64,000 nucleotides of DNA from Nitrosopumilus sp. (lineage in GTDB: Archaea > Thermoproteota > Nitrososphaeria > Nitrososphaerales > Nitrosopumilaceae). Position 1 is the stretch's first letter, and each line of letters begins with the position of its first letter. The notes under the pieces are model-generated. The model was given only the letters and a program-made list of their open reading frames with translations. It made no database searches and was not told the origin of the DNA. Positions 12,027-44,221 of this stretch are shown here, in pieces. The DNA lies in contig OZ241857.1 in the NCBI GenBank assembly GCA_965203315.1, forward strand, positions 192,001 to 256,000, given 5' to 3'. Both the position numbers and the translations under genes were made by a program.

Positions 12027-12203
12027 GGTTCTGTTAACCTGACGGGGGTTGGCATTTTATGCGCAAAATTCTCAAAAAATTTTGTAAAATATGGAAACGG
12101 TCTCACATCGGCAATCGTAAATTTCTGCTGTTTTGAGTCTCATGTTGTGCGTTCATCGAGATAACGTCATCACGATCTTGACCCTCATCGATTGAACAGA
12201 ACC
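12027..12203. mobile_element. MITE family B
   Basis: Similar to 1011-1188. Confidence 0.85.
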
Positions 12204-12436: not shown

Positions 12437-13288
12437 ATGAGGACCAAATCGATTATAATTAACACCGATATAATTTACAATGAAGATTGTATTGATACAA
12501 TGGCACGATTTCCTGATAACTGTATCGACCTTGTAGTTACTTCTCCTCCATATGACAACATGAGAAAGTACAACGGCAACAGTTTCAACGAATTTGAGAC
12601 CATATCGTGTGAACTATACCGAGTGATAAAAGATGGCGGAGTTGTTGTGTGGGTTATAGGCGATCAAACACATAATGGAAACGAGAGCGGAACATCATTT
12701 ACACATGCCTTGTTCTTCAAAGAGATCGGATTTAATCTATTTGATACAATGATATATCTCAAACCTCCACGCGGTGCTGTTGGTAACAACAAGACTTATT
12801 GGCAATCATTCGAGTACATGTTTGTATTTTCTAAAGGTAAACCGAAAACGATCAATCTCTTAATTGACAGAGAGAACAAAGATTCTCGAGATGGAGATAA
12901 CGGTACAAAGAGATTGTGCAACGGTACCCTAAAGAACGTAAAACGAAACGGATACGAAAAGATGGGTAGAAGGACTAACGTTTGGGAGTACTATACTGGA
13001 AAAGGACACTCTGCAACAGACAACATAGCACATCAACACCCCGCAATATTTCCAGAAAAACTCGCAAGAGATCATATCATGTCCTGGAGTAACAAGGGCG
13101 ATATCGTATATGATCCGTTTATGGGTTCTGGTACAACCGCAAAGATGTGTGTCCTGAATGATCGCAAGTACATAGGAAGTGAGTTGGATGAAAATTATTA
13201 TATGATATCAAAAAAGAGATTAAGGGCTTGTCAGACCCAGATACGACTAGACAAAAACGGTGTAGAGGGTGCAAGCAATACAAGATAG
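12437..13288 (+). CDS. Beta-class N4-C/N6-A DNA methyltransferase
   Basis: TSPPY precedes HPAIFP and DPFMGSGTT. Confidence 0.92.
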   Translation: MRTKSIIINTDIIYNEDCIDTMARFPDNCIDLVVTSPPYDNMRKYNGNSFNEFETISCELYRVIKDGGVVVWVIGDQTHNGNESGTSFTHALFFKEIGFNLFDTMIYLKPPRGAVGNNKTYWQSFEYMFVFSKGKPKTINLLIDRENKDSRDGDNGTKRLCNGTLKNVKRNGYEKMGRRTNVWEYYTGKGHSATDNIAHQHPAIFPEKLARDHIMSWSNKGDIVYDPFMGSGTTAKMCVLNDRKYIGSELDENYYMISKKRLRACQTQIRLDKNGVEGASNTR

Positions 13289-13633
13289 GAAGAGTTTGCA
13301 AAGAACCAATTTGGTAAAGACAACAGAGTATTACGCAGACCAATATGTAAAGCATGTTACAAAAAGAAGAGAGCGATCAGTCCAAAAGCGAGACGTGATT
13401 ACATAAAGAATAATCCCAAGACTGCAATGGGAGAAAAGTTCACATGTCCAATATGTCGCAAGGTCATAATTCATGAACACAAGAACGAGATATGTCTCGA
13501 TCATGATCAAGAGACAGGTAGGATTCGTGGATGGATATGCATAAGTTGTAATTCATGTATTGACAAATTCAATGAAGATACACAAATTCTGGAAAGAGCG
13601 TTCAAATGGTTAAAAGGAGATCTAAATCCTTAA
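13228..13633 (+). pseudogene. Frameshifted His-Me (Hpy99I/EndoVII-like) endonuclease
   Basis: CRGC in one frame; RPICKAC, CPICRK and LDHDQETGRIRGWICISCN in another. Confidence 0.7.
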
Positions 13634-13751
13634 TCTATACTTGCACAAATAACATAACCGTTATTGACGAGTCGTCAGGAGATGAACATCATATCAAATG
13701 AAGGAGTGAACAACTTTTCATATCCCACACGTGAACAAATCGTTCATAGTC

Positions 13752-13794
13752 TTTAAATACAAACTCTTGATGGAAATATCAATAACATGAATAA
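13752..13794 (+). promoter_or_regulatory. TATA box plus 28-bp repeat (left site) carrying a copy of the S-layer start
   Basis: TTTAAATA at 13752-13759; TTGATGGAAATATCAATAACATGAATAA at 13767-13794 is the exact reverse complement of 19037-19064. Confidence 0.8.
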
Positions 13795-14146
13795 TTGTAC
13801 ATGTTGTACAATGTGCCTGTGTAAAGTTTAGCATGATGTTTTGTAGTCTATTGTCCTACACACCAAGTTCAGATCGCTCATATCAAGCATCTCGTGAATG
13901 AGCAGTATTGTATAATGCAAGAGTCGAGAATGAAGGAGTAGAAATCATCGTATATTTGACCTTATTCATATTGCGCCTTTTGCATGAAATCAATAATACA
14001 CACTAGCATAACTTTGTATTTTCTAGAGGGAAAATGTAGATAATGTTACATATTTCCTTAATTTGCATAATAAATTTGACAATATGAATAAGGTCAATTG
14101 TCATTGACACTGTATGTAGATATCACTATGCATAGTTGTATCATAT

Positions 14147-14166
14147 AAAAAAAGAAAAAGAAAAAG
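14147..14166 (-). terminator. Oligo-T terminator of the S-layer gene
   Basis: T-rich tract on the minus strand immediately after the stop codon. Confidence 0.6.
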
Positions 14167-14172
14167 TTTGAA

Positions 14173-17100
14173 CTAGTTTACAGTTATTGTTGTTGTCTGT
14201 TGTGGAGATAGTGCAGTTGGTATCGTCAACGACTCCCATGCAAATACGGTAATTGTGTATTCACCGGATGCTGTTGGTATCCAAGACTGAGATGGACTAA
14301 GCGATTGAGATGGTGTCAATGAACCATCAATCCAAGACAGAGATACTGTAACGCCATCGCTATCTTGTATTTGTATCAAGTATGCAAATGGCTGGTCTTT
14401 GTCTTGTGTGTTTGTCAAATCTGCAGTGATCTGGACTTGTTGATCTATTGATACTGTACTGAGTGTTGTACCTGTAGAGTCTACTATTCTCAATGACTCG
14501 ATGTTTACTCGTTCTAGAGGAGGTACTATTGTTCCTATTATTGTGGTTGCAGTGATGTCCTCAGAGTCGCCTGTATTGTATGGAGCAGGTAGAGTGTTGT
14601 CGCTGTACTTTGCAGTGACTGTGTCTCCTTCTTCTGCGGATAGTTTGTGACCACCTGATTGGACAGAGAGTCCAAAGAATACAGTACCTTCAAAGATACC
14701 ACTTGCTGGTTGAGTCTCTGTTACTGTAAGGGTTATTCCACTGGGTGCACTAGAAGACCATACTTTGACCTCAAAGTTGTCTGCAGATTCTGGATTCAAG
14801 TTCATGTCGGGATCGATTACACGTAGTACGCCTGTAGCTGTAGCAGGATAACTTGCTTCTAGCCACTGAACTTCACCAATGTTCCAACGGATTAGAGCAG
14901 ACTTGCGAACAGTCTCGTCGTCAGAGAACTCGAATGATACCTCGAGTCCGTCGTCGTTGTCTGTTGGTAATAGTCCATCGGTTGGTCCATTACATCTATC
15001 ACATGTACGACCTGTGACGTCTTTACCATCTGCGCCCGTATCTTGATCACCGTCTGCGTCGTACGAGAATCCTGTCAGTATTACTTCACCTGTAAAGATA
15101 CCAGTGTTTGTACCTGTCTCTACGAGTTTGTAGTTTTTAATGTCGTCGGATCTTGTAGCAACACGCACTGGATATGGATCCGCACCAATCTCGTCTACTT
15201 GGTTTGTGTTTAGGTTGTGATCAGGAGCTGTTACAGTAATGAATACCTTGTCGGTCCAACTGTATACGCTTTGATCTAGTTCTATTGTAGCACCAAAGTT
15301 TGATGTGAATACCGTTCTGTCGATATCTTCTGTATTATCACCTACAAAGTCTGCACCTGATGGTCCATAGTCGGTGTACTCTAGCTTGATCTCTTCACCA
15401 CGTTCTAGTCTGTCGCCGTCTATGTCCCTAGGAACAGATATGACCACTTGGAAGATACCTGTGCTAGGACCAGTCTCTCGTAGAGAACCTGGTTCTGCAT
15501 CGAATATACCTTCACTCAGATTCTTGGTACCTGCGTCCGAGTCCCACTTGATCAGATCAAGTGTGTATGTTTCGCGTGTACCGCTGTCTAGATCAAGGTC
15601 TGGATCGATGAGTGTTACGATCATGTCCGAGCCTATCACATATACAGACTTGTCTGTCTGTAGGGCACCGTTTCGTAGATCAAAGGTAGCAGAGTCTGTG
15701 ACTGTACGTGGGTTACCAGAAGCATCTGTAGTGTCGTTGTACTGTACTGTAATGATATCACCTTGTAGGATACATGTACGGCTTGTCGTACCGTCAGCTA
15801 TTGTTCTACTTGGACAGTCACTACCACTTGGTCCATCTATGTAAGATAGATCAAAGCTTACTTCGAACACTCCAGATTCAGGAGATGTCTCTGTTAGAGC
15901 ACCCAAATTCTTTGGATCACATGTACCAGTATCTCGAGCATTAGTGTACCTTAACTCTGCCAAGAGATATTCGGTATATTTTGTAGCCTTTTCAGTAGGA
16001 TCTGTAGCATCAGCATGTGCCTTTTTTGCGGCATCTCGCTTTCGTTCCAACTGACTAACCTCGTCGTTTGCCTCTGATGTAGTGCCACCTGCATGACCTA
16101 TTAAACACTCATCACCGCTGCGAGAGACTGTTACCTTGACTGGTCCGTTTCCAGACATGCCTTCGATCTTGTCCTCGCCTGTAGGATTCAAGTTGTAGTC
16201 TGGGTCGTTTACTTGAACATAGACTTTGACTGTACCAAGTGGAAGATTCGTTCCGGCCATGTCTAGGGCTCTTGAACCAGTTGTTGTACCCTGACCATAC
16301 GGAACTGGATATACAGTTCTATCTAGAGATACAGAGCCTGTACTTGCACCAATCGATGCAGAGTCACCAGCTGTGACTATCTGACCAGATGCATCTCTAA
16401 AGTCTAGATATGTTACACCAATATCTTTGCCGCTTGTAGGTGTGTTAGGATTTCTCGTGTTTACTGTATCGTCGTCATTAAAGTTGCATACTTGTTTTGG
16501 TATAGAAAATGAACCTGTAAAGACTCCTGTACTGGATCCGGTCTCTTGTAGAGTGAATCCGGTTTTACCGAGTCCGTTCTGAATGTTATCATCTAGGCTA
16601 CATGCACCAGATTTCCATCTCTCACCACCAATGGTTACCTCTAGGAGCATTCCTAGTGATTTGCCACCTGGTAGTAGAGACTTGTACTCGATACCAGCTA
16701 CATTGGTTACACTCATGCCTACTTGATCTCTATCTGTGTCATTGTGGTTACTGTCCATCACGACAGTATAGGTATCAGCACGATCAGGATCTGTATTCAA
16801 GTCTGCGTCTTCTAGCGTTATGACGACATTACTGCCTACACTGTATGTCTCTGCGTTTAGAGATACCACACCACTAGAGGTTGCAATATCTTGTTGGTCA
16901 GAGACCACAACTGTGTTATCATTTGCGTTCGTATCGACATAGTTTACTCGCGCGTCAGAGCCTGTAATGTCCTCAAAGGCGATGAATTTGACTTCGTTGC
17001 CTATTGGTGTGATGCTTTCGTATATGTAACCAGTTTTGATTACTGAGCCTGCTTCCAGAGCTAACTTGTCATGTACTATAACATCGAGTTGGTTTACCAT

Positions 17101-19044
17101 GACGTACTCTAGTGTTCCTGTAAAGGTACTGGTGTTCTCGCCAGTCTCTTCTACCTCGACTCGTATTATTTGGTTTGCAACTCTCTCGTTTGCTTGTGCA
17201 CCGTCGTTATAGAATCCATAGGAGAAGAAATCTGCAACTATAGGATATTTTTTGTCTTTTTCAAACTTAAACTGGTTTGTGAATGATAGTACCAGTAGAA
17301 CTGGTGTATCATCGTTTACATTGGGTCTATTTGATAGTTCTGGACCAGATAGTGAGAATACTTCAGTCCAAACATAGCCACCATTGACAACAGTAGAGAC
17401 TTTCCATTCTGTTATATCTCTAAGGTCATTAGTAGTGGAATATGGTATTGTACTAACGGTGAGAGCGGCACCATAAATGGCATTCCGGTCATTGTCAAGT
17501 AAGATAAGATCGCCAGCCATGTTATTGGTACCGAAGACACCATAATCATAGTTGAATAGATTGCGTCCTGTAAAGTTGCCTGTACCGTTGAGGTCATCGT
17601 CATTGATTGATTCACGAAGATCTCCAAGAGTACCTAATGGAATAGCAACTCTTCTGACAGTTGTATCTTCTACAACTGATATGATTCCTCTATGACTATC
17701 ATCTACTGTGTAATTTAGTGCGTATGTGTTACTTTGACTGGAATCTGTCGAATATGTTATAGCGCTAGTACTTGCACTGTATCCATAGATTGTAGCGTTT
17801 GTGCCGTCCTTTAGTGTATGTGGATCTCCAGTCATGAATATTGGAATTCTTGCGTCTGGATTAGATACAGTTTGATCGTCTTCTGCATCACTGTCTTTGT
17901 TTTGATCTGCATCAACTATGGTTAGGTCTATTTTTTCACCCGAGTTCCACGTGCCGTCCTCGATATCGAGGTTTACTGTAGCAGTGGTTAGTCGTAGGTT
18001 TACGGCTACACTCTCATCACTATATGTGATCTGCGTGTTTGTGCCTCGTGGTGCATCGTCTTTGATCTTTATTGATCCACCCTTGTCTGCAATCTCAAAG
18101 ATACCAGTGTTTGGTCCAGTCTCATCGAATTGGAGTAAGTTTATGGTGTTACCACTAACAGTATGTGCACGAAATGTAACGTCAAGTATCTTTTCCATAT
18201 CTCCCATCGGTACATCAAGGATACAATCATCTTCACAACCAAAGGCGCCAGTATCTGTTCGCCAATGATTAAAATCATTGCCATGGTCAAACCCAACCCT
18301 CTTACCAGGTTCATCGGTAATTTCAGTATTTTCCTGCATCATCAAATACACCGTATCTTTCGCAGTAGGGTCTGCATTTAGTACATGATCGGTGATTGTC
18401 AGATAGACATTTGCACCTCTTGGGTAAGAGTCTCGATCGAGTTCGATTGAATTGTTTTTAGACGTGTCGTATGTTACCGTTACTGTCTGAGGATTTCCAG
18501 CCTTGTGATAAACGACTTCAACTTCGTCTCCATCATCAAGATCAAGATACATTACATGTTTAGCGTCACCTGCATTAGTAACGAGTATCTTGTTAGTGGT
18601 ACTACCTCTTTGGTAAGGTAGTTCACTTAGCAATACTGCTCTGAAACCAGCATCGTCGGTAGTGATATCACCTACGGGTGACTTGTCATCAAAGTCGCCA
18701 TCTCCGTTGCCATCTCGGCCACTATCAGTAAAGTAACCATACCAAGAACCATCACCACCGTGTTGCAAAGTGAGATCTTTATCATCAACTGTGACTCTAG
18801 GCATTCCATCACCTTTATCGGTCCGTAAAGGATCACTTACAATAACCTCTACATACTGTATACCACCAAAAGTATTGTCGAATCTAGCGCCATATCCATT
18901 TGGATCAGCAGCTGAGACGTATAGGTTTGGTGTCGACTGGGCATATACTGGTTCCATGCTCGGTATAGCAAAGGTCAGTCCGCCAGCGACCATTATCGTC
19001 ATTAGTATTAAACTAGTTGTTTTTCGTCCTATTTCGTTATTCAT
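14173..19044 (-). CDS. Thaumarchaeal S-layer protein
   Basis: MNNEIGRK..LMTIMVAGGLTFAIP signal region, repeated ETG..TG.F.G Ig-like modules and a typical C-terminal domain (PFAYLIQIQD..SLSWI). Confidence 0.88.
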   Translation of the reverse strand: MNNEIGRKTTSLILMTIMVAGGLTFAIPSMEPVYAQSTPNLYVSAADPNGYGARFDNTFGGIQYVEVIVSDPLRTDKGDGMPRVTVDDKDLTLQHGGDGSWYGYFTDSGRDGNGDGDFDDKSPVGDITTDDAGFRAVLLSELPYQRGSTTNKILVTNAGDAKHVMYLDLDDGDEVEVVYHKAGNPQTVTVTYDTSKNNSIELDRDSYPRGANVYLTITDHVLNADPTAKDTVYLMMQENTEITDEPGKRVGFDHGNDFNHWRTDTGAFGCEDDCILDVPMGDMEKILDVTFRAHTVSGNTINLLQFDETGPNTGIFEIADKGGSIKIKDDAPRGTNTQITYSDESVAVNLRLTTATVNLDIEDGTWNSGEKIDLTIVDADQNKDSDAEDDQTVSNPDARIPIFMTGDPHTLKDGTNATIYGYSASTSAITYSTDSSQSNTYALNYTVDDSHRGIISVVEDTTVRRVAIPLGTLGDLRESINDDDLNGTGNFTGRNLFNYDYGVFGTNNMAGDLILLDNDRNAIYGAALTVSTIPYSTTNDLRDITEWKVSTVVNGGYVWTEVFSLSGPELSNRPNVNDDTPVLLVLSFTNQFKFEKDKKYPIVADFFSYGFYNDGAQANERVANQIIRVEVEETGENTSTFTGTLEYVMVNQLDVIVHDKLALEAGSVIKTGYIYESITPIGNEVKFIAFEDITGSDARVNYVDTNANDNTVVVSDQQDIATSSGVVSLNAETYSVGSNVVITLEDADLNTDPDRADTYTVVMDSNHNDTDRDQVGMSVTNVAGIEYKSLLPGGKSLGMLLEVTIGGERWKSGACSLDDNIQNGLGKTGFTLQETGSSTGVFTGSFSIPKQVCNFNDDDTVNTRNPNTPTSGKDIGVTYLDFRDASGQIVTAGDSASIGASTGSVSLDRTVYPVPYGQGTTTGSRALDMAGTNLPLGTVKVYVQVNDPDYNLNPTGEDKIEGMSGNGPVKVTVSRSGDECLIGHAGGTTSEANDEVSQLERKRDAAKKAHADATDPTEKATKYTEYLLAELRYTNARDTGTCDPKNLGALTETSPESGVFEVSFDLSYIDGPSGSDCPSRTIADGTTSRTCILQGDIITVQYNDTTDASGNPRTVTDSATFDLRNGALQTDKSVYVIGSDMIVTLIDPDLDLDSGTRETYTLDLIKWDSDAGTKNLSEGIFDAEPGSLRETGPSTGIFQVVISVPRDIDGDRLERGEEIKLEYTDYGPSGADFVGDNTEDIDRTVFTSNFGATIELDQSVYSWTDKVFITVTAPDHNLNTNQVDEIGADPYPVRVATRSDDIKNYKLVETGTNTGIFTGEVILTGFSYDADGDQDTGADGKDVTGRTCDRCNGPTDGLLPTDNDDGLEVSFEFSDDETVRKSALIRWNIGEVQWLEASYPATATGVLRVIDPDMNLNPESADNFEVKVWSSSAPSGITLTVTETQPASGIFEGTVFFGLSVQSGGHKLSAEEGDTVTAKYSDNTLPAPYNTGDSEDITATTIIGTIVPPLERVNIESLRIVDSTGTTLSTVSIDQQVQITADLTNTQDKDQPFAYLIQIQDSDGVTVSLSWIDGSLTPSQSLSPSQSWIPTASGEYTITVFAWESLTIPTALSPQQTTTITVN

Positions 19045-19064
19045 GTTATTGATATTTCCATCAA
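19037..19064 (-). repeat. 28-bp inverted repeat (right site) spanning the S-layer start codon
   Basis: Exact inverted copy of 13767-13794. Confidence 0.9.
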
Positions 19065-19443
19065 TAATTTGCAAATGATTAGATGGGTGAACGATTAGCA
19101 TCGACATGCCTAATAGATGACATGGCAGAACACTCTATACGGGATTGAGAAACTATAGTCGATAAAAAGACACAAGACATCGAGCAGTTCAGAATACTGT
19201 AGAGCATTCGTGTTGTGTACACTGTTAAACTTGTGGACACTGCCATATGCAATTCTGGTAGGTGATCTGTATGGTGTCTAGAAGATTATTTTTGGATGTC
19301 ATAAGATATGCTCGACAAGACATACTTGTAACCGCGACCGTTAACTACGCCCTAAATGTTTAACATACGTCCATTTGTAAAGACTGACACACAACATACA
19401 TTGTTTATAATAACATAATTATTTCAGTACATGTGTAACAAAT

Positions 19444-21414
19444 ATGTTGCCTCAAATCAACGTTCAAGGTCAATCTCCTTTCAAGCAGTCTGGCGTATAT
19501 GAGGTTCAGATATCTATAGTTGATATCAAGCCATCTGAAGCAGACATTATCTCTAAGAATTTTCAAGCAATTTGGAAAGAAGATTTTCATCTTCGTGTAA
19601 ACGATGGTGCATTTACAGAGGTACTGGGCTCTGACGATAATCCTTTACCTGATTCTATTGCAGATTATGATCGGATCATCGTACTCGTAACTGATCTCTT
19701 TTCTGATAAATATTCTATAATCGAGGTACCGTTAGAGAGGCCTACACCTACTGTAGAGCCTTCACCAAAAGCTGTGAAAGATGTACCTGACCCACAAATA
19801 GACGAATCGAATCTCTCAGACGATCTAGATCAAAGTCCGTATGCCAATATGGGACCTCGCGGACCTCCAGGACCTAGAGGACTACCAGGTCCGATAGGTC
19901 AATCAGGTGACAAGGGACCAACTGGTGAACGAGGACAGCAGGGTGACAAGGGACCAACTGGTGAACGAGGTTCTAGAGGCGACACAGGAATGACTGGTGA
20001 CAGAGGCGACAAGGGCGACAAGGGACCAACAGGCCCTGTAGGCGACAAAGGTGATACGGGAATGCGCGGACCGATTGGTGACAAGGGCGACAAGGGACCA
20101 ACAGGCCCCGTAGGTGATAAAGGTGACACAGGACTACGTGGACCGATTGGCGACAAAGGTGACAAGGGACCAACAGGTCCTGTAGGCGACAAAGGTCAGC
20201 AGGGAATGCGCGGACCGATTGGTGACAAAGGTGACACAGGACCGCAAGGGCATCCTGGAGATAAAGGAATGATGGGTCCGGTAGGTCCACCTGGGCCTAA
20301 AGGTCCAACTGGTAATGCTGGTATTCAGGGTGAGAAGGGAATTCAGGGACCAACAGGCCCCGTAGGTGAGAAAGGTCCACAAGGCCCAACTGGCGACAAA
20401 GGCATGATGGGTGACAAGGGACCAACCGGCCCTGTAGGTATTACTGGAGATAAGGGCCCACAAGGACCACCTGGTCCAATAGGTGAGAGAGGCAGTAAAG
20501 GACATGAAGGCCCCGTAGGTGAGAAAGGACCACAAGGACCACAAGGACCAATAGGAGAAAAAGGACTGACAGGAGTTGTCGGTCCACAAGGCGATAAAGG
20601 AGATAAAGGAGAAAAAGGACTGACAGGAGACAAAGGCGACAAGGGACCACAAGGACCACTTGGCCCAATAGGCGAGAAAGGTGACAAGGGGCCTGTAGGA
20701 CAAGTAGGCGAGAAAGGTCAACAAGGTCAACAAGGTCCATCAGGATCTAAAGGACTGACAGGAGTTGTTGGTCCACAAGGCGATAAAGGAGAGAAAGGCA
20801 AGATTGGTGAGAAAGGCGACAAGGGACAGACGGGCGCAACAGGACCACCGGGCGACAAGGGCCCACAAGGCCCACCTGGTCCGATAGGTGAGAAGGGCAG
20901 CAAAGGACCTGAGGGGCCAATAGGCGAAAAGGGCCCACAAGGCCCACAGGGTCCTGCAGGACCTAAAGGACTGACAGGTGTACCAGGTCCGCAAGGTGAA
21001 AAAGGCGAAAAGGGCCAGATGGGTTTGATAGGCGACAAGGGACCAACAGGCCCTGTAGGCGCTGTGGGCGACAAGGGACCAACAGGCCCACAAGGATCAC
21101 AAGGTGAACGTGGACAGCCAGGTCCACCAGGCGAAAAGGGCCCACAAGGCCCACAAGGAATACAAGGACCACAAGGTGAACGTGGCCCCCTAGGTCCACT
21201 AGGTCCACCCGGCGATCAGGGTCCTCATGGAGAGCAAGGCCCACTAGGTCCACCCGGCCCCAGAGGTCCACCCGGTCCACCCGGCGAGAAAGGACCATCA
21301 GGAGGCATGTCTATAGAGTACAAGGCATTACTCAAAGAGTTGTTGGAGACCCTTACAGAAAAACAGATCATCACAGATGAAGAACAGATCAAACTCATGA
21401 GTTATCTCTACTAG
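19444..21414 (+). CDS. Collagen-like triple-helix protein
   Basis: About 160 consecutive Gly-X-Y triplets (19852-21309) between short globular/helical ends. Confidence 0.92.
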
Positions 21415-39866: not shown

Positions 39867-41205
39867 TATTATCCATGTGAATAGCTTATAAAGATTTACT
39901 CTGATTCACGACTATTGTGCATAGCATACGCTAGGGATGTGTTCCCATGTAAAGGACTGCGAACATATATCCATTCGAGTGGTTAACTCACTATCATTCT
40001 TCGTCCATTCGTCAAAATCTGTACATTTAGGTCGCCGAGTGATATCTCAAATATCTTCCGTACGTTAATGATTTCGACTACAATGTGTGACATAATCATC
40101 CCTATCTATAAGCATATGGTACATCAATCGTAGTAGTTTGGAGGCAGTTGCAACAGTTGCTTTGCTTACCGCGCGTCTCTTTTTAATTCTGTTATGAAAT
40201 TTTGTAATGTAACTATGGGGCTCACATTTTATGTGTACATGAACTGCTTCGGTCAATGCCCATCTAAGCATTTTATCACCTTTCCTCGTTATATGTCCAT
40301 GATTTTGTTTACCAGCTGAATTACGAACAGATGGTACTATTCCTGCATACGAACATATCTTACGAACAGTTGGGAATCTCTTGACATCTCCAATACTAGA
40401 TATTACAACAAGTGCAACAAAGTTTCCAACTCCGGGAATCGTCTTTAACAACTGTGCATCTTGTGATCTCTTTACCTCCTCACGCATTTTAATATCCAAT
40501 TGTCTAATCATTTCTTCATGGCAAGTTATCATATCTAGATAGTTGTCTATTCTATAATCCTCAAGTTTCTTCAATTCCTCTCTAAATGACTTGCTAAAAC
40601 TTGAACCAGGTATTTTAATCCCATATTGCAGTAATATCCCATGTATGAGATTCTTGTATTTTGTTCTACTCTTTACAATTACATCCCTATGTCGAACCAA
40701 CTGTTTTAATTTAACAGTGTATTCACTAGGAACAAAACAAGGCGAGATATAATTTCCTCTTAAAAGATCTGCCAGTGTCCATGCATCCACCTTGTCTGTC
40801 TTTTTCTTTGATTCGGCAATAGCCTTTGTTTGATATGGATTCGATAGTACTACATCAAATCCCAATTCATCTGTCAAGTATCTATACAGCCAATACCATA
40901 CTGACGATGACTCCATCACACAACGTGTATTGAGTGGTGTAAATTGTGCAAAGAATTTTTTGAGACTGTCATGATCTGTAGCAACACGCTCATTGAGTAT
41001 ACGCTTGCCATCCTGATCCATTGCTGCAATTTGCAGAAACCTCTTGTGTGCATCTATTCCGATATAGATCATCTTGTTTTTCTTTTTTAGATGGGTAATC
41101 TGTTCGTTTGCATTTTCTCTTTTAGATCGCTTTACAGGTGATCGCTTGGATCGACTCACATACCTTCTATCATCTGAATGTACTCTGATCGGCTTCTTCA
41201 CATAT
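39867..41205 (-). mobile_element. IS110/IS1111-type element, copy 1
   Basis: 1339-bp inverted near-duplicate of 42883-44221. Confidence 0.92.
40065..41201 (-). CDS. IS110-family DEDD recombinase
   Basis: IGIDAHK, VMES, KTDKVDA, IPGVG and RNSAG motifs; real start may be MIYIGID. Confidence 0.93.
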   Translation of the reverse strand: MKKPIRVHSDDRRYVSRSKRSPVKRSKRENANEQITHLKKKNKMIYIGIDAHKRFLQIAAMDQDGKRILNERVATDHDSLKKFFAQFTPLNTRCVMESSSVWYWLYRYLTDELGFDVVLSNPYQTKAIAESKKKTDKVDAWTLADLLRGNYISPCFVPSEYTVKLKQLVRHRDVIVKSRTKYKNLIHGILLQYGIKIPGSSFSKSFREELKKLEDYRIDNYLDMITCHEEMIRQLDIKMREEVKRSQDAQLLKTIPGVGNFVALVVISSIGDVKRFPTVRKICSYAGIVPSVRNSAGKQNHGHITRKGDKMLRWALTEAVHVHIKCEPHSYITKFHNRIKKRRAVSKATVATASKLLRLMYHMLIDRDDYVTHCSRNH

Positions 41206-42882: not shown

Positions 42883-44221
42883 ATATGTGAAGAAGCCGAT
42901 CAGAGTACATTCAGATGATAGAAGGCATGTGAGTCGATCCAAGCGATCACCTGTAAAGCGATCTAAAAGAGAAAATGCAAACGAACAGATTACCCATCTA
43001 AAAAAGAAAAACAAGATGATCTATATCGGAATAGATGCACACAAGAGGTTTCTGCAAATTGCAGCAATGGATCAGGATGGCAAGCGTATACTCAATGAGC
43101 GTGTTGCTACAGATCATGACAGTCTCAAAAAATTCTTTGCACAATTTACACCACTCAATACACGTTGTGTGATGGAGTCATCATCAGTATGGTATTGGTT
43201 GTATAGATACTTGACAGATGAATTGGGATTTGATGTAGTACTATCGAATCCATATCAAACAAAGGCTATTGCCGAATCAAAGAAAAAGACAGACAAGGTG
43301 GATGCATGGACACTGGCAGATCTTTTAAGAGGAAATTATATCTCGCCTTGTTTTGTTCCTAGTGAATACACTGTTAAATTAAAACAGTTGGTTCGACATA
43401 GGGATGTAATTGTAAAGAGTAGAACAAAATACAAGAATCTCATACATGGGATATTACTGCAATATGGGATTAAAATACCTGGTTCAAGTTTTAGCAAGTC
43501 ATTTAGAGAGGAATTGAAGAAACTTGAGGATTATAGAATAGACAACTATCTAGATATGATAACTTGCCATGAAGAAATGATTAGACAGTTGGATATTAAA
43601 ATGCGTGAGGAAGTAAAGAAATCACAAGATGCGCAGCTGTTAAAGACAATTCCCGGAGTTGGAAATTTTGTTGCACTTGTTGTAATATCTAGTATTGGAG
43701 ATGTCAAGAGATTTCCAACTGTTCGTAAGATATGTTCGTATGCAGGAATAGTACCATCTGTTCGTAATTCAGCTGGTAAACAAAATCATGGACATATAAC
43801 GAGGAAAGGTGATAAAATGCTTAGATGGGCATTGACCGAAGCAGTTCATGTACACATAAAATGTGAGCCCCATAGTTACATTACAAAATTTCATAACAGA
43901 ATTAAAAAGAGACGCGCGGTAAGCAAAGCAACTGTTGCAACTGCCTCCAAACTACTACGATTGATGTACCATATGCTTATAGATAGGGATGATTATGTCA
44001 CACATTGTAGTCGAAATCATTAACGTACGGAAGATATTTGAGATATCACTCGGCGACCTAAATGTACAGATTTTGACGAATGGACGAAGAATGATAGTGA
44101 GTTAACCACTCGAATGGATATATGTTCGCAGTCCTTTACATGGGAACACATCCCTAGCGTATGCTATGCACAATAGTCGTGAATCAGAGTAAATCTTTAT
44201 AAGCTATTCACATGGATAATA
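42883..44221 (+). mobile_element. IS110/IS1111-type element, copy 2
   Basis: Sub-terminal IR ATGTGAA; about 200-bp 3' non-coding region. Confidence 0.92.
42887..44023 (+). CDS. IS110-family DEDD recombinase
   Basis: Nearly identical to the 40065-41201 product. Confidence 0.93.
   Translation: MKKPIRVHSDDRRHVSRSKRSPVKRSKRENANEQITHLKKKNKMIYIGIDAHKRFLQIAAMDQDGKRILNERVATDHDSLKKFFAQFTPLNTRCVMESSSVWYWLYRYLTDELGFDVVLSNPYQTKAIAESKKKTDKVDAWTLADLLRGNYISPCFVPSEYTVKLKQLVRHRDVIVKSRTKYKNLIHGILLQYGIKIPGSSFSKSFREELKKLEDYRIDNYLDMITCHEEMIRQLDIKMREEVKKSQDAQLLKTIPGVGNFVALVVISSIGDVKRFPTVRKICSYAGIVPSVRNSAGKQNHGHITRKGDKMLRWALTEAVHVHIKCEPHSYITKFHNRIKKRRAVSKATVATASKLLRLMYHMLIDRDDYVTHCSRNH

Follow-up and report, generated by a model that had tools for sequence, protein, structure and literature searches.

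Can an archaeal gene for a surface-layer (S-layer) protein be turned around on the chromosome so that it gains or loses its promoter? The question is raised by a 64,000-nt stretch of a Nitrosopumilus sp. genome (GenBank assembly GCA_965203315.1, contig OZ241857.1, positions 192,001 to 256,000 of the forward strand). This whole stretch is hereafter called the window. In it, an intact S-layer gene lies between two inverted copies of a 28-nt sequence and faces away from the candidate TATA promoter found at one end of the segment. Our analysis indicates that this 5.3-kb segment is quite likely one of at least seven invertible S-layer cassettes that together form a multi-locus ON/OFF switch for S-layer variants.

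The 28-mer (TTGATGGAAATATCAATAACATGAATAA) is present in exact copies at 13767-13794 (+) and 19037-19064 (-), precisely where an earlier note, made from the letters of the window, had placed an inverted pair bracketing the S-layer reading frame and its terminator. With up to 3 mismatches allowed, the window has no further match, and none of 100 dinucleotide shuffles contained any. An inverted-repeat search extended the arms to 35 nt (13760-13794 / 19037-19071), which are 94% complementary and lie 5242 nt apart. Within these arms, the core site consists of dyad arms around a short asymmetric spacer, present as two inverted copies, a layout shared by seven loci of the genome. The dyad noticed earlier as overlapping the repeat reads TTGAT-GGAAAT-ATCAA at the left site. 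The segment between the sites (~5.3 kb) encloses the whole S-layer gene plus the T-rich stretch that follows it. The elements of this locus, referred to as locus B in comparisons, are the following:

13732..13746, + strand: promoter palindrome TGAAC-N5-GTTCA, fixed, outside the invertible segment and present in 8 of 8 promoter-type flanks of the genome
13752..13759, + strand: candidate TATA box TTTAAATA, 27 nt before the left-site ATG (13787); the fixed half of the promoter
13760..13794, + strand: left recombination site (putative), with outer arm CAAACTC, TTGAT at 13767-13771, spacer GGAAAT at 13772-13777, ATCAA at 13778-13782 and an inner arm holding the ATG at 13787-13789
13787..13831, + strand: dead-end open reading frame of 14 codons (MNNCTCCTMCLCKV*), currently next after the promoter; homologous dead ends exist at 8 loci
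14140..14172 (approximate bounds), - strand: T-rich stretch directly 3' of the S-layer stop codon, conserved in 8 of 8 aligned loci
14173..19044, - strand: intact gene of the S-layer protein (1623 aa), pointing away from the TATA promoter (the OFF orientation in the assembly)
19037..19071, - strand: right recombination site (putative), with the same spacer as the left site (GGAAAT) and carrying the S-layer gene start codon (19044-19042)
19072..19110, - strand: outer flank of non-TATA type, apparently a degenerate copy of the promoter region, in which AATCGTTCA is kept at 19088-19096 and the TATA box is replaced by ATCATTTG

Judged by its sequence and position, the element at 13752-13759 would act as the TATA box of a promoter. 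It accompanies the left copy only and leads into the 14-codon dead end, as the earlier note had read it, at a distance of 27 nt from the ATG where 28 had been given. No TATA box was found at the equivalent place of the right flank, in agreement with the claim that the upstream region of the real gene lacks one there, and this gene indeed begins at the ATG contained in the right copy of the repeat. The AATCGTTCA element described as lying some 20 to 23 nt outside both copies was recovered at 20 nt from the left site (13738-13746) and at 23 nt from the right one (as the complement of 19088-19096).

The 1623-aa product is, by sequence, clearly a homologue of the N. maritimus S-layer protein, which agrees with the identity first proposed for it. 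A phmmer comparison with PDB 8c8k_A (N. maritimus cell surface protein) gave E = 0 and 1157 bits over four stretches, the best being residues 1064-1643, and the protein belongs by homology to the NmSLP family; a Pfam search with it returned no match. Its relatives, at 39-63% identity, are found in Nitrosopumilaceae genomes, which places the host among the ammonia-oxidising archaea of this family. NmSLP (Nmar_1547; PDB 8c8k) likewise consists of arrayed Ig-like domains preceded by a signal peptide at the N terminus. Oligo-T tracts function in archaeal transcription termination, and the T-rich stretch at 14140..14172 is, by analogy, likely the terminator of the S-layer gene.

The same architecture recurs throughout the source assembly (2.47 Mb in 7 contigs, 99.98% complete). 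When up to 3 mismatches are allowed, the genome contains 18 copies of the 28-mer (10 forward, 8 reverse) and none of the reversed control pattern, and the copies conform to TTGAT-N6-ATCAATAACATG[A/T]ATAA. They pair up in inverted orientation, 5.0-5.3 kb apart, around S-layer paralogs. Genome-wide, the bare TTGAT-N6-ATCAA dyad has 36 occurrences; S-layer sites account for 16, and none lies near the tyrosine recombinase genes. The outer flank of each site is either of promoter type, with the palindrome, [T/C/G]TTAAATA and CAAAC, or of non-TATA type. The inner side is either a gene start (ATGAATAACGAAATAGG, MNNEIG...) or a dead end (ATG[A/T]ATAATTG[T/C]ACA, with one extra G at locus H). Each locus has its own palindrome and TATA flank, which lie outside the sites, and the gene lies inside.

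Both sites could be placed on a single contig at seven loci. With ON and OFF assigned from promoter motifs alone, four of them (A, C, E and locus B in the window) are OFF, that is, the promoter flank meets the dead end and the non-TATA flank meets the gene. The remaining three (D, H and I) are ON: there, the gene follows the promoter flank and the dead end adjoins the non-TATA flank. At locus E, the non-TATA flank was first flagged as TATA-like because of TTTAGATA, which overlaps the outer arm; it was counted as non-TATA since it has no palindrome and lies too near the ATG. ON and OFF loci differ solely in which cassette end meets which flank, and the junction falls inside the shared site. The two configurations that inversion predicts thus both exist among paralogous loci, with the exchange point within the site, and past inversion between these sites is all but certain. 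The 28-mer, which the earlier note proposed to look for at other S-layer paralogs, brackets such paralogs at seven paired loci of this genome, which supports the interpretation given there; among the relatives searched, none has more than one match.

Two further sites stand apart from these pairs. A promoter-plus-dead-end site at C1:1804975 (+) and a non-TATA-plus-gene site at C1:1845288 (+) have the spacer GATAAT in common but are 40 kb apart and in direct orientation. No second site follows the gene at the latter position, and the pair looks broken or rearranged.

A repeat with some other role might be considered, either a repressor operator whose far copy is a decoy, or the terminal repeats by which a non-autonomous transposon took the S-layer gene to many places. 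The dyad does occupy the interval from the TATA box to the start, a frequent binding place of archaeal repressors, and the cassettes are found in unrelated genomic contexts of a genome rich in insertion sequences (13 IS110-family copies over the Pfam cut-off). However, neither role explains how a promoter flank comes to meet a gene at some loci and a dead end at others with the breakpoint inside the site. On the promoter side, the loci also remain similar for 70-95 nt past the repeat; the duplicated unit therefore does not end at the repeats, and the ends of IS110 elements are unlike the site. Both versions are very improbable as a replacement for recombination, although an operator role could coexist with it.

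The spacers speak more directly to recombination. The 6-nt sequence varies among loci (GTGAAT, GGAAAT, GAGAAT, AGAAAC, GAGATT and others) and is nevertheless identical in both sites at five of the seven paired loci, an agreement reached by 2 of 5040 partner permutations. Independent drift after duplication would not keep such identity; recombination through the spacer, or selection for spacer identity, would. Selection of this kind operates between the sites of tyrosine-recombinase systems. The exchange point can be narrowed further, since the ATGTATAA variant is confined to dead ends (5 of 8) and appears at none of the 10 distinct gene starts, which places the exchange on the promoter side of the ATG.

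Which enzyme might catalyze the exchange is less apparent. In the genome, there was no match to serine recombinases (Pfam Resolvase), no match to Phage_int_SAM_1 (PF02899, the N-terminal domain of Xer-type tyrosine recombinases) and no protein with the Xer-like build of ~300 aa with an N-terminal SAM-like domain. Phage_integrase (PF00589) matched two paralogous proteins (542 and 545 aa), of which only one exceeds the Pfam cut-off; in both, the conserved motifs H-x-x-R ... GH ... Y and C-terminal Cys pairs could be read by eye. Fourteen IS110-family DEDD genes were matched at E <=0.001, 13 of them over the Pfam cut-off; two are in the window and one lies ~600 nt from locus C. The IS110 family includes the Piv invertase, and with two of its genes in the window, the earlier assumption that the recombinase is encoded outside is not certain. 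The 8-kb flanks on both sides of nine loci have only short repeats of ~140-190 nt in common and no recurrent protein. On sequence grounds, the 542/545-aa tyrosine recombinases and the IS110-family DEDD genes are candidates only. Whether a dedicated site-specific recombinase performs the inversion is, in our estimate, evenly balanced, and the likelihood that such an enzyme is Xer-like is low.

The IS110-family genes in the window are identical and lie inverted, 2 kb apart, at 40623-41063 (-) and 43025-43465 (+). The ends of IS110 copies were considered as a source of the site and rejected, being unlike it. The genome also has many copies of two other insertion sequences, with transposases of 536 and 387 aa.

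The same switch could have a different engine, namely, RadA-dependent homologous recombination between the 28-35-nt repeats, comparable to the RecA-dependent sap system of Campylobacter fetus. It would account for the lack of a recombinase linked to any locus and for the missing serine recombinase and PF02899 matches, and gene conversion could produce the within-locus identity of the spacers. On the other hand, the repeats are very short for this process, their dyad-spacer-dyad layout is that of a recombinase core, and exchange takes place solely on the promoter's side of the start codon. That the arms are conserved across loci beside a freely varying spacer further suggests recognition by a protein. 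We therefore regard homologous recombination as an unlikely engine.

Relatives inform on which orientation came first. Two species of the same genus (G012 and G015) have a single ...ATCAATAACATGAATAACGAAATAGGACG, with the palindrome TGGAC-N5-GTCCA and the TATA-like TTTTATAC 26 nt before the ATG. Their single S-layer gene is preceded by ATCAATAACATGAATAACGAAATAGG, with neither a TTGAT dyad nor a second copy. This arrangement identifies the promoter flank as the native S-layer promoter and ON as the ancestral state. It also answers the concern that the left copy in the window might be a mere stump of a deleted paralog: the relatives show a real promoter, here parted from its gene. The non-TATA flanks, in turn, look from their sequence like decayed copies of the promoter region, with AATCGTTCA kept in the window and the TATA box destroyed, which suggests an origin of the inverted repeat in an inverted duplication that was once longer.

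Paired sites were absent from 400 other genomes of the family, 19 of which had a match and none more than one, and no genome among 40 relatives had more than one site match. The single matches shown in relatives are mostly the native S-layer gene start, of TTAAGAAAA type and without the dyad. At 80 S-layer loci from other species, there was no inverted repeat of >=16 nt between the 5' region of the gene and its 3' flank. Public metagenome contigs yielded four site matches, all of them chance matches in unrelated organisms.

Is the segment still flipping? The assembly itself contains one trace of heterogeneity. Contigs C1 and C5 are 100% identical over their first 17,739 nt. Their first difference, at 17740/17741, falls in a site's spacer, which in C5 reads TGGAAT, the sequence also present at locus D; past this point, the two contigs are no longer related. 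This branch represents either one cassette on two flanks, through inter-locus recombination in part of the population, or a very recent 17.7-kb duplication that ends in the site. A second trace comes from public sequencing data, available to us as short k-mer contigs from four runs (X1-X4). Three of them (X1, X3 and X4, from two studies) each have a contig whose end coincides with position 19037, where the 28-mer has its inner edge. When a k=31 graph is drawn from the assembly and nothing else, this contig should begin at 19027 and not at 19037; the rule accounted for 31 of the 42 listed contig ends. A start at 19037 requires a second sequence before the 28-mer and the right flank, as an inverted junction would supply. 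The break at 19037 is thus a suggestive sign of the inverted junction in the population.

These traces bear on the view that the cassettes are fossil rearrangements, spread by duplication and inverted a few rare times during evolution, with orientations that are now fixed and no phase variation. The assembly gives one orientation per locus, the contigs of the public runs provide no direct evidence of mixed orientations, and loci F, J and K are interrupted by insertions, so that the family is partly decaying. Fixed orientations are, however, difficult to reconcile with the intact state of both sites at 7 of 7 paired loci and with the covariation of their spacers, which needs continued interaction or selection. 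The 19037 break in three runs and the spacer branch between C1 and C5 point to present-day heterogeneity, and eight full-length genes have remained intact even when OFF. A purely fossil origin thus seems improbable. An active, programmed ON/OFF switch remains the probable state of the system, though well short of assured.

Several observations weigh against an active switch or restrict what it can be. The graph rule left 11 of the 42 contig ends unpredicted, three at 19037 and four in mismatch contigs or in the neighboring collagen-repeat gene; as some unpredicted ends arise otherwise (from strain differences or collagen repeats), an extra copy missing from the assembly could also account for the 19037 break. 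The short contigs of X1-X4 contain no inverted-junction contig and no strand-change joint at the sites, in a setting where a bridging contig would hold only two new 31-mers and would probably be too short to show. Three loci are ON at once, so this is not a one-at-a-time system. It is seen in one genome only. Spacers are unequal at loci D and I, both of which are ON; it is speculation that these loci are locked in that state. Adjoining the loci, no recombinase gene was found at any of them, and the 542/545-aa family is patchy and multicopy (17 of 61 genomes of the genus, this one counted), as is usual of mobile-element integrases. Finally, the present upstream region of the gene in the window contains an A/T-rich stretch and an in-frame ATG at 19107 (-), and some expression in the OFF state is therefore possible. 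Translation from this ATG would add 21 residues (MSMLIVHPSNHLQIIDGNINN, 19045-19107) ahead of the signal peptide. The ATG is probably accidental; even so, strictly speaking, it leaves the OFF gene with a potential start farther upstream.

On the opposite side of the segment, the dead end has features of its own:

13794..13812, unstranded: hairpin ATTGTACA-TGT-TGTACAAT, directly behind the site on the dead-end side, recognized in the alignment of 8 dead ends
13956..14097, unstranded: insertion of 142 nt resembling a miniature inverted-repeat transposable element (MITE), with 18-nt perfect terminal inverted repeats (TTGACCTTATTCATATTG), in the dead-end region of this locus only and absent from the other 7 aligned

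The hairpin stem is retained in 8 of 8 aligned loci; at locus C, a two-sided change turns a T-A pair into C-G, and loci E and H have a G-T wobble. Folding of four of the eight hairpins predicted the stem with no covariation, those four being alike, and the compensatory pair appears only in the eight-way alignment. Also within the cassette, a conserved spacer region measures ~240 nt and is longer at this locus owing to the 142-nt insertion.

Taken together, these elements suggest how the switch might work. The cassette would comprise the whole S-layer gene, its terminator, the ~240-nt spacer region and the short dead end, with two inverted sites of ~35-40 nt around them. Each site would sit between the TATA box and the start codon, so placed that the palindrome and the TATA box stay outside while a transcription start region and an ATG are present at both ends of the segment. 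Recombination within TTGAT-N6-ATCAA would flip the cassette. In one orientation, the promoter would read the S-layer gene (ON), and in the other, it would read the 14-codon dead end and then the hairpin (OFF). Locus-specific spacers would confine recombination to the locus itself, and the recombinase is assumed to act in trans from elsewhere in the genome. The outcome would be a population varied in the S-layer variants that it makes, which differ in their outward-facing N-terminal domains. We infer that flipping is ongoing and frequent, that it is catalyzed by an enzyme, that OFF means silent and that the process serves a biological purpose.

What such a switch would vary is evident from the paralogs. 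The genome has ~11 S-layer gene copies, eight intact (1591-1675 aa) and three interrupted (F, J and K); F and J contain insertions of ~480 and ~980 nt, and one copy on contig C4 is interrupted by an insertion sequence. The intact paralogs are 73-83% identical overall. Their signal peptide is conserved and their last ~500 residues are 96-100% identical, with a hypervariable region in between (residues ~100-750), where mean pairwise identity falls to 18-40% in most 50-residue windows, apart from a few conserved islands. In the N. maritimus S-layer structure, as given in the parts of the source available to us, N-terminal domains 1, 2 and 4 are outermost and bear most of the glycans, and the ninth domain forms the base near the membrane (PMC11153153). 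By this domain order, the variable half of the protein is the exposed half. The same parts of that source mention two S-layer copies in N. maritimus, 91% identical, describe the S-layer of ammonia-oxidising archaea as their only wall, an ammonium-concentrating device and the presumed first contact for viruses, and carry the authors' suggestion that its glycan coat may shield against phages (PMC11153153).

Copies F and J share a different promoter variant. Found at C1:1810524 (-) and C6:25101 (+), it lacks the dyad, and a poly-G tract (G9 in one copy, G11 in the other) separates a TATA-like box from the start. The insertions that interrupt these genes lie around codons 125-135. The length of the tract could vary by slippage, or it could be a homopolymer error of the assembly.

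Programmed DNA inversion is a classic bacterial means of varying the cell surface, and the nearest parallels to the cassettes are bacterial. In Mycoplasma (vpma of M. agalactiae and vsp of M. bovis, with Xer1; vsa of M. pulmonis, with HvsR), short-site inversion in a conserved 5' region likewise moves surface genes to and from a promoter, and the variable parts are exposed. Those systems are built as one cluster with one expression site and the recombinase gene next door, whereas the archaeal loci are dispersed, with a fixed TATA-type promoter each, a dummy dead-end partner site and no recombinase nearby. C. fetus sap also comprises 8-9 S-layer homologues with one conserved and one variable end, and inversion decides which is expressed. 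There, a single promoter lies on the invertible element and RecA-dependent exchange uses conserved 5' regions of ~600 bp; here, the sites are 28-35-nt dyads, each gene has a promoter and the whole gene flips, which sets it apart from the sap type. The capsular invertons of Bacteroides fragilis (Mpi) share the dispersed loci with one repeat consensus, the independent ON/OFF states and a recombinase presumably encoded elsewhere. In them, a serine recombinase flips a small promoter segment, unlike the fixed promoter and 5-kb gene segment found here, in a genome with no serine recombinase detected. The promoter lies outside the segment, whereas in promoter invertons of the fimS and Bacteroides PS type it lies within. 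In Ureaplasma parvum (mba/UU172), according to the portion of the account available, short 5' inverted repeats exchange what follows a fixed promoter and N terminus, and candidate tyrosine recombinases are encoded elsewhere; two alternative genes are switched there, whereas here the alternative is a noncoding dead end and the loci are many. By analogy, the logic would be that of a bacterial surface-protein inversion switch, distinct in its fixed promoter, its whole-gene flip and a site set within an archaeal core promoter.

The earlier note knew of no such switch in this lineage, and our search of the full-text literature yielded no account of archaeal S-layer genes being inverted; the table of archaeal invertons that supplements 10.1101/2023.03.11.532203 lay outside that search. 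Chromosomal invertons of archaea are, in the accessible part of that study, "only minimally investigated", with 36 Euryarchaeota and 6 Crenarchaeota data sets and no Thaumarchaeota surveyed (10.1101/2023.03.11.532203). Should the switch prove active, a genome with eight intact S-layer variants would demonstrate envelope bet-hedging by DNA inversion in archaea, the feasibility of placing a recombination site inside a TATA-type promoter of an archaeon, and diversifying pressure on the outer domains of the S-layer, in a lineage that matters for the global nitrogen cycle. The fullest version of this picture, for and against which we hold equal expectations, is an S-layer wardrobe of at least seven genes, each flipped at a site in its core promoter by one trans-acting recombinase, with spacers serving as addresses and unequal spacers perhaps locking a gene ON. 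With it, an archaeal envelope would for the first time be seen to undergo programmed phase or antigenic variation, which would probably serve escape from viruses or grazers.

The surroundings of the locus contain several other genes and repeats. Just upstream of the promoter flank lie an N6/N4 DNA methylase gene (12437-13288, +; Pfam E 1e-40) and a 68-aa homologue of recombination endonuclease VII (13427-13633, +; E 2.9e-13). Neither recurs at other S-layer loci, so the two may be part of a mobile element. At 12027-12203 lies a 177-nt element whose 23-nt terminal inverted repeats are imperfect; it recurs at 75-84% identity near several other S-layer loci, at D and F directly beside the sites, and probably represents a MITE family. 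Beyond the non-TATA flank, a gene for a 656-aa protein with collagen triple-helix repeats follows (19444-21414, +; Pfam Collagen, E 3e-79). Contigs of the public runs have internal joints in this gene (skips of 40 and 813 nt and a step back of 987 nt), as expected from variation in repeat number or from repeat collapse.

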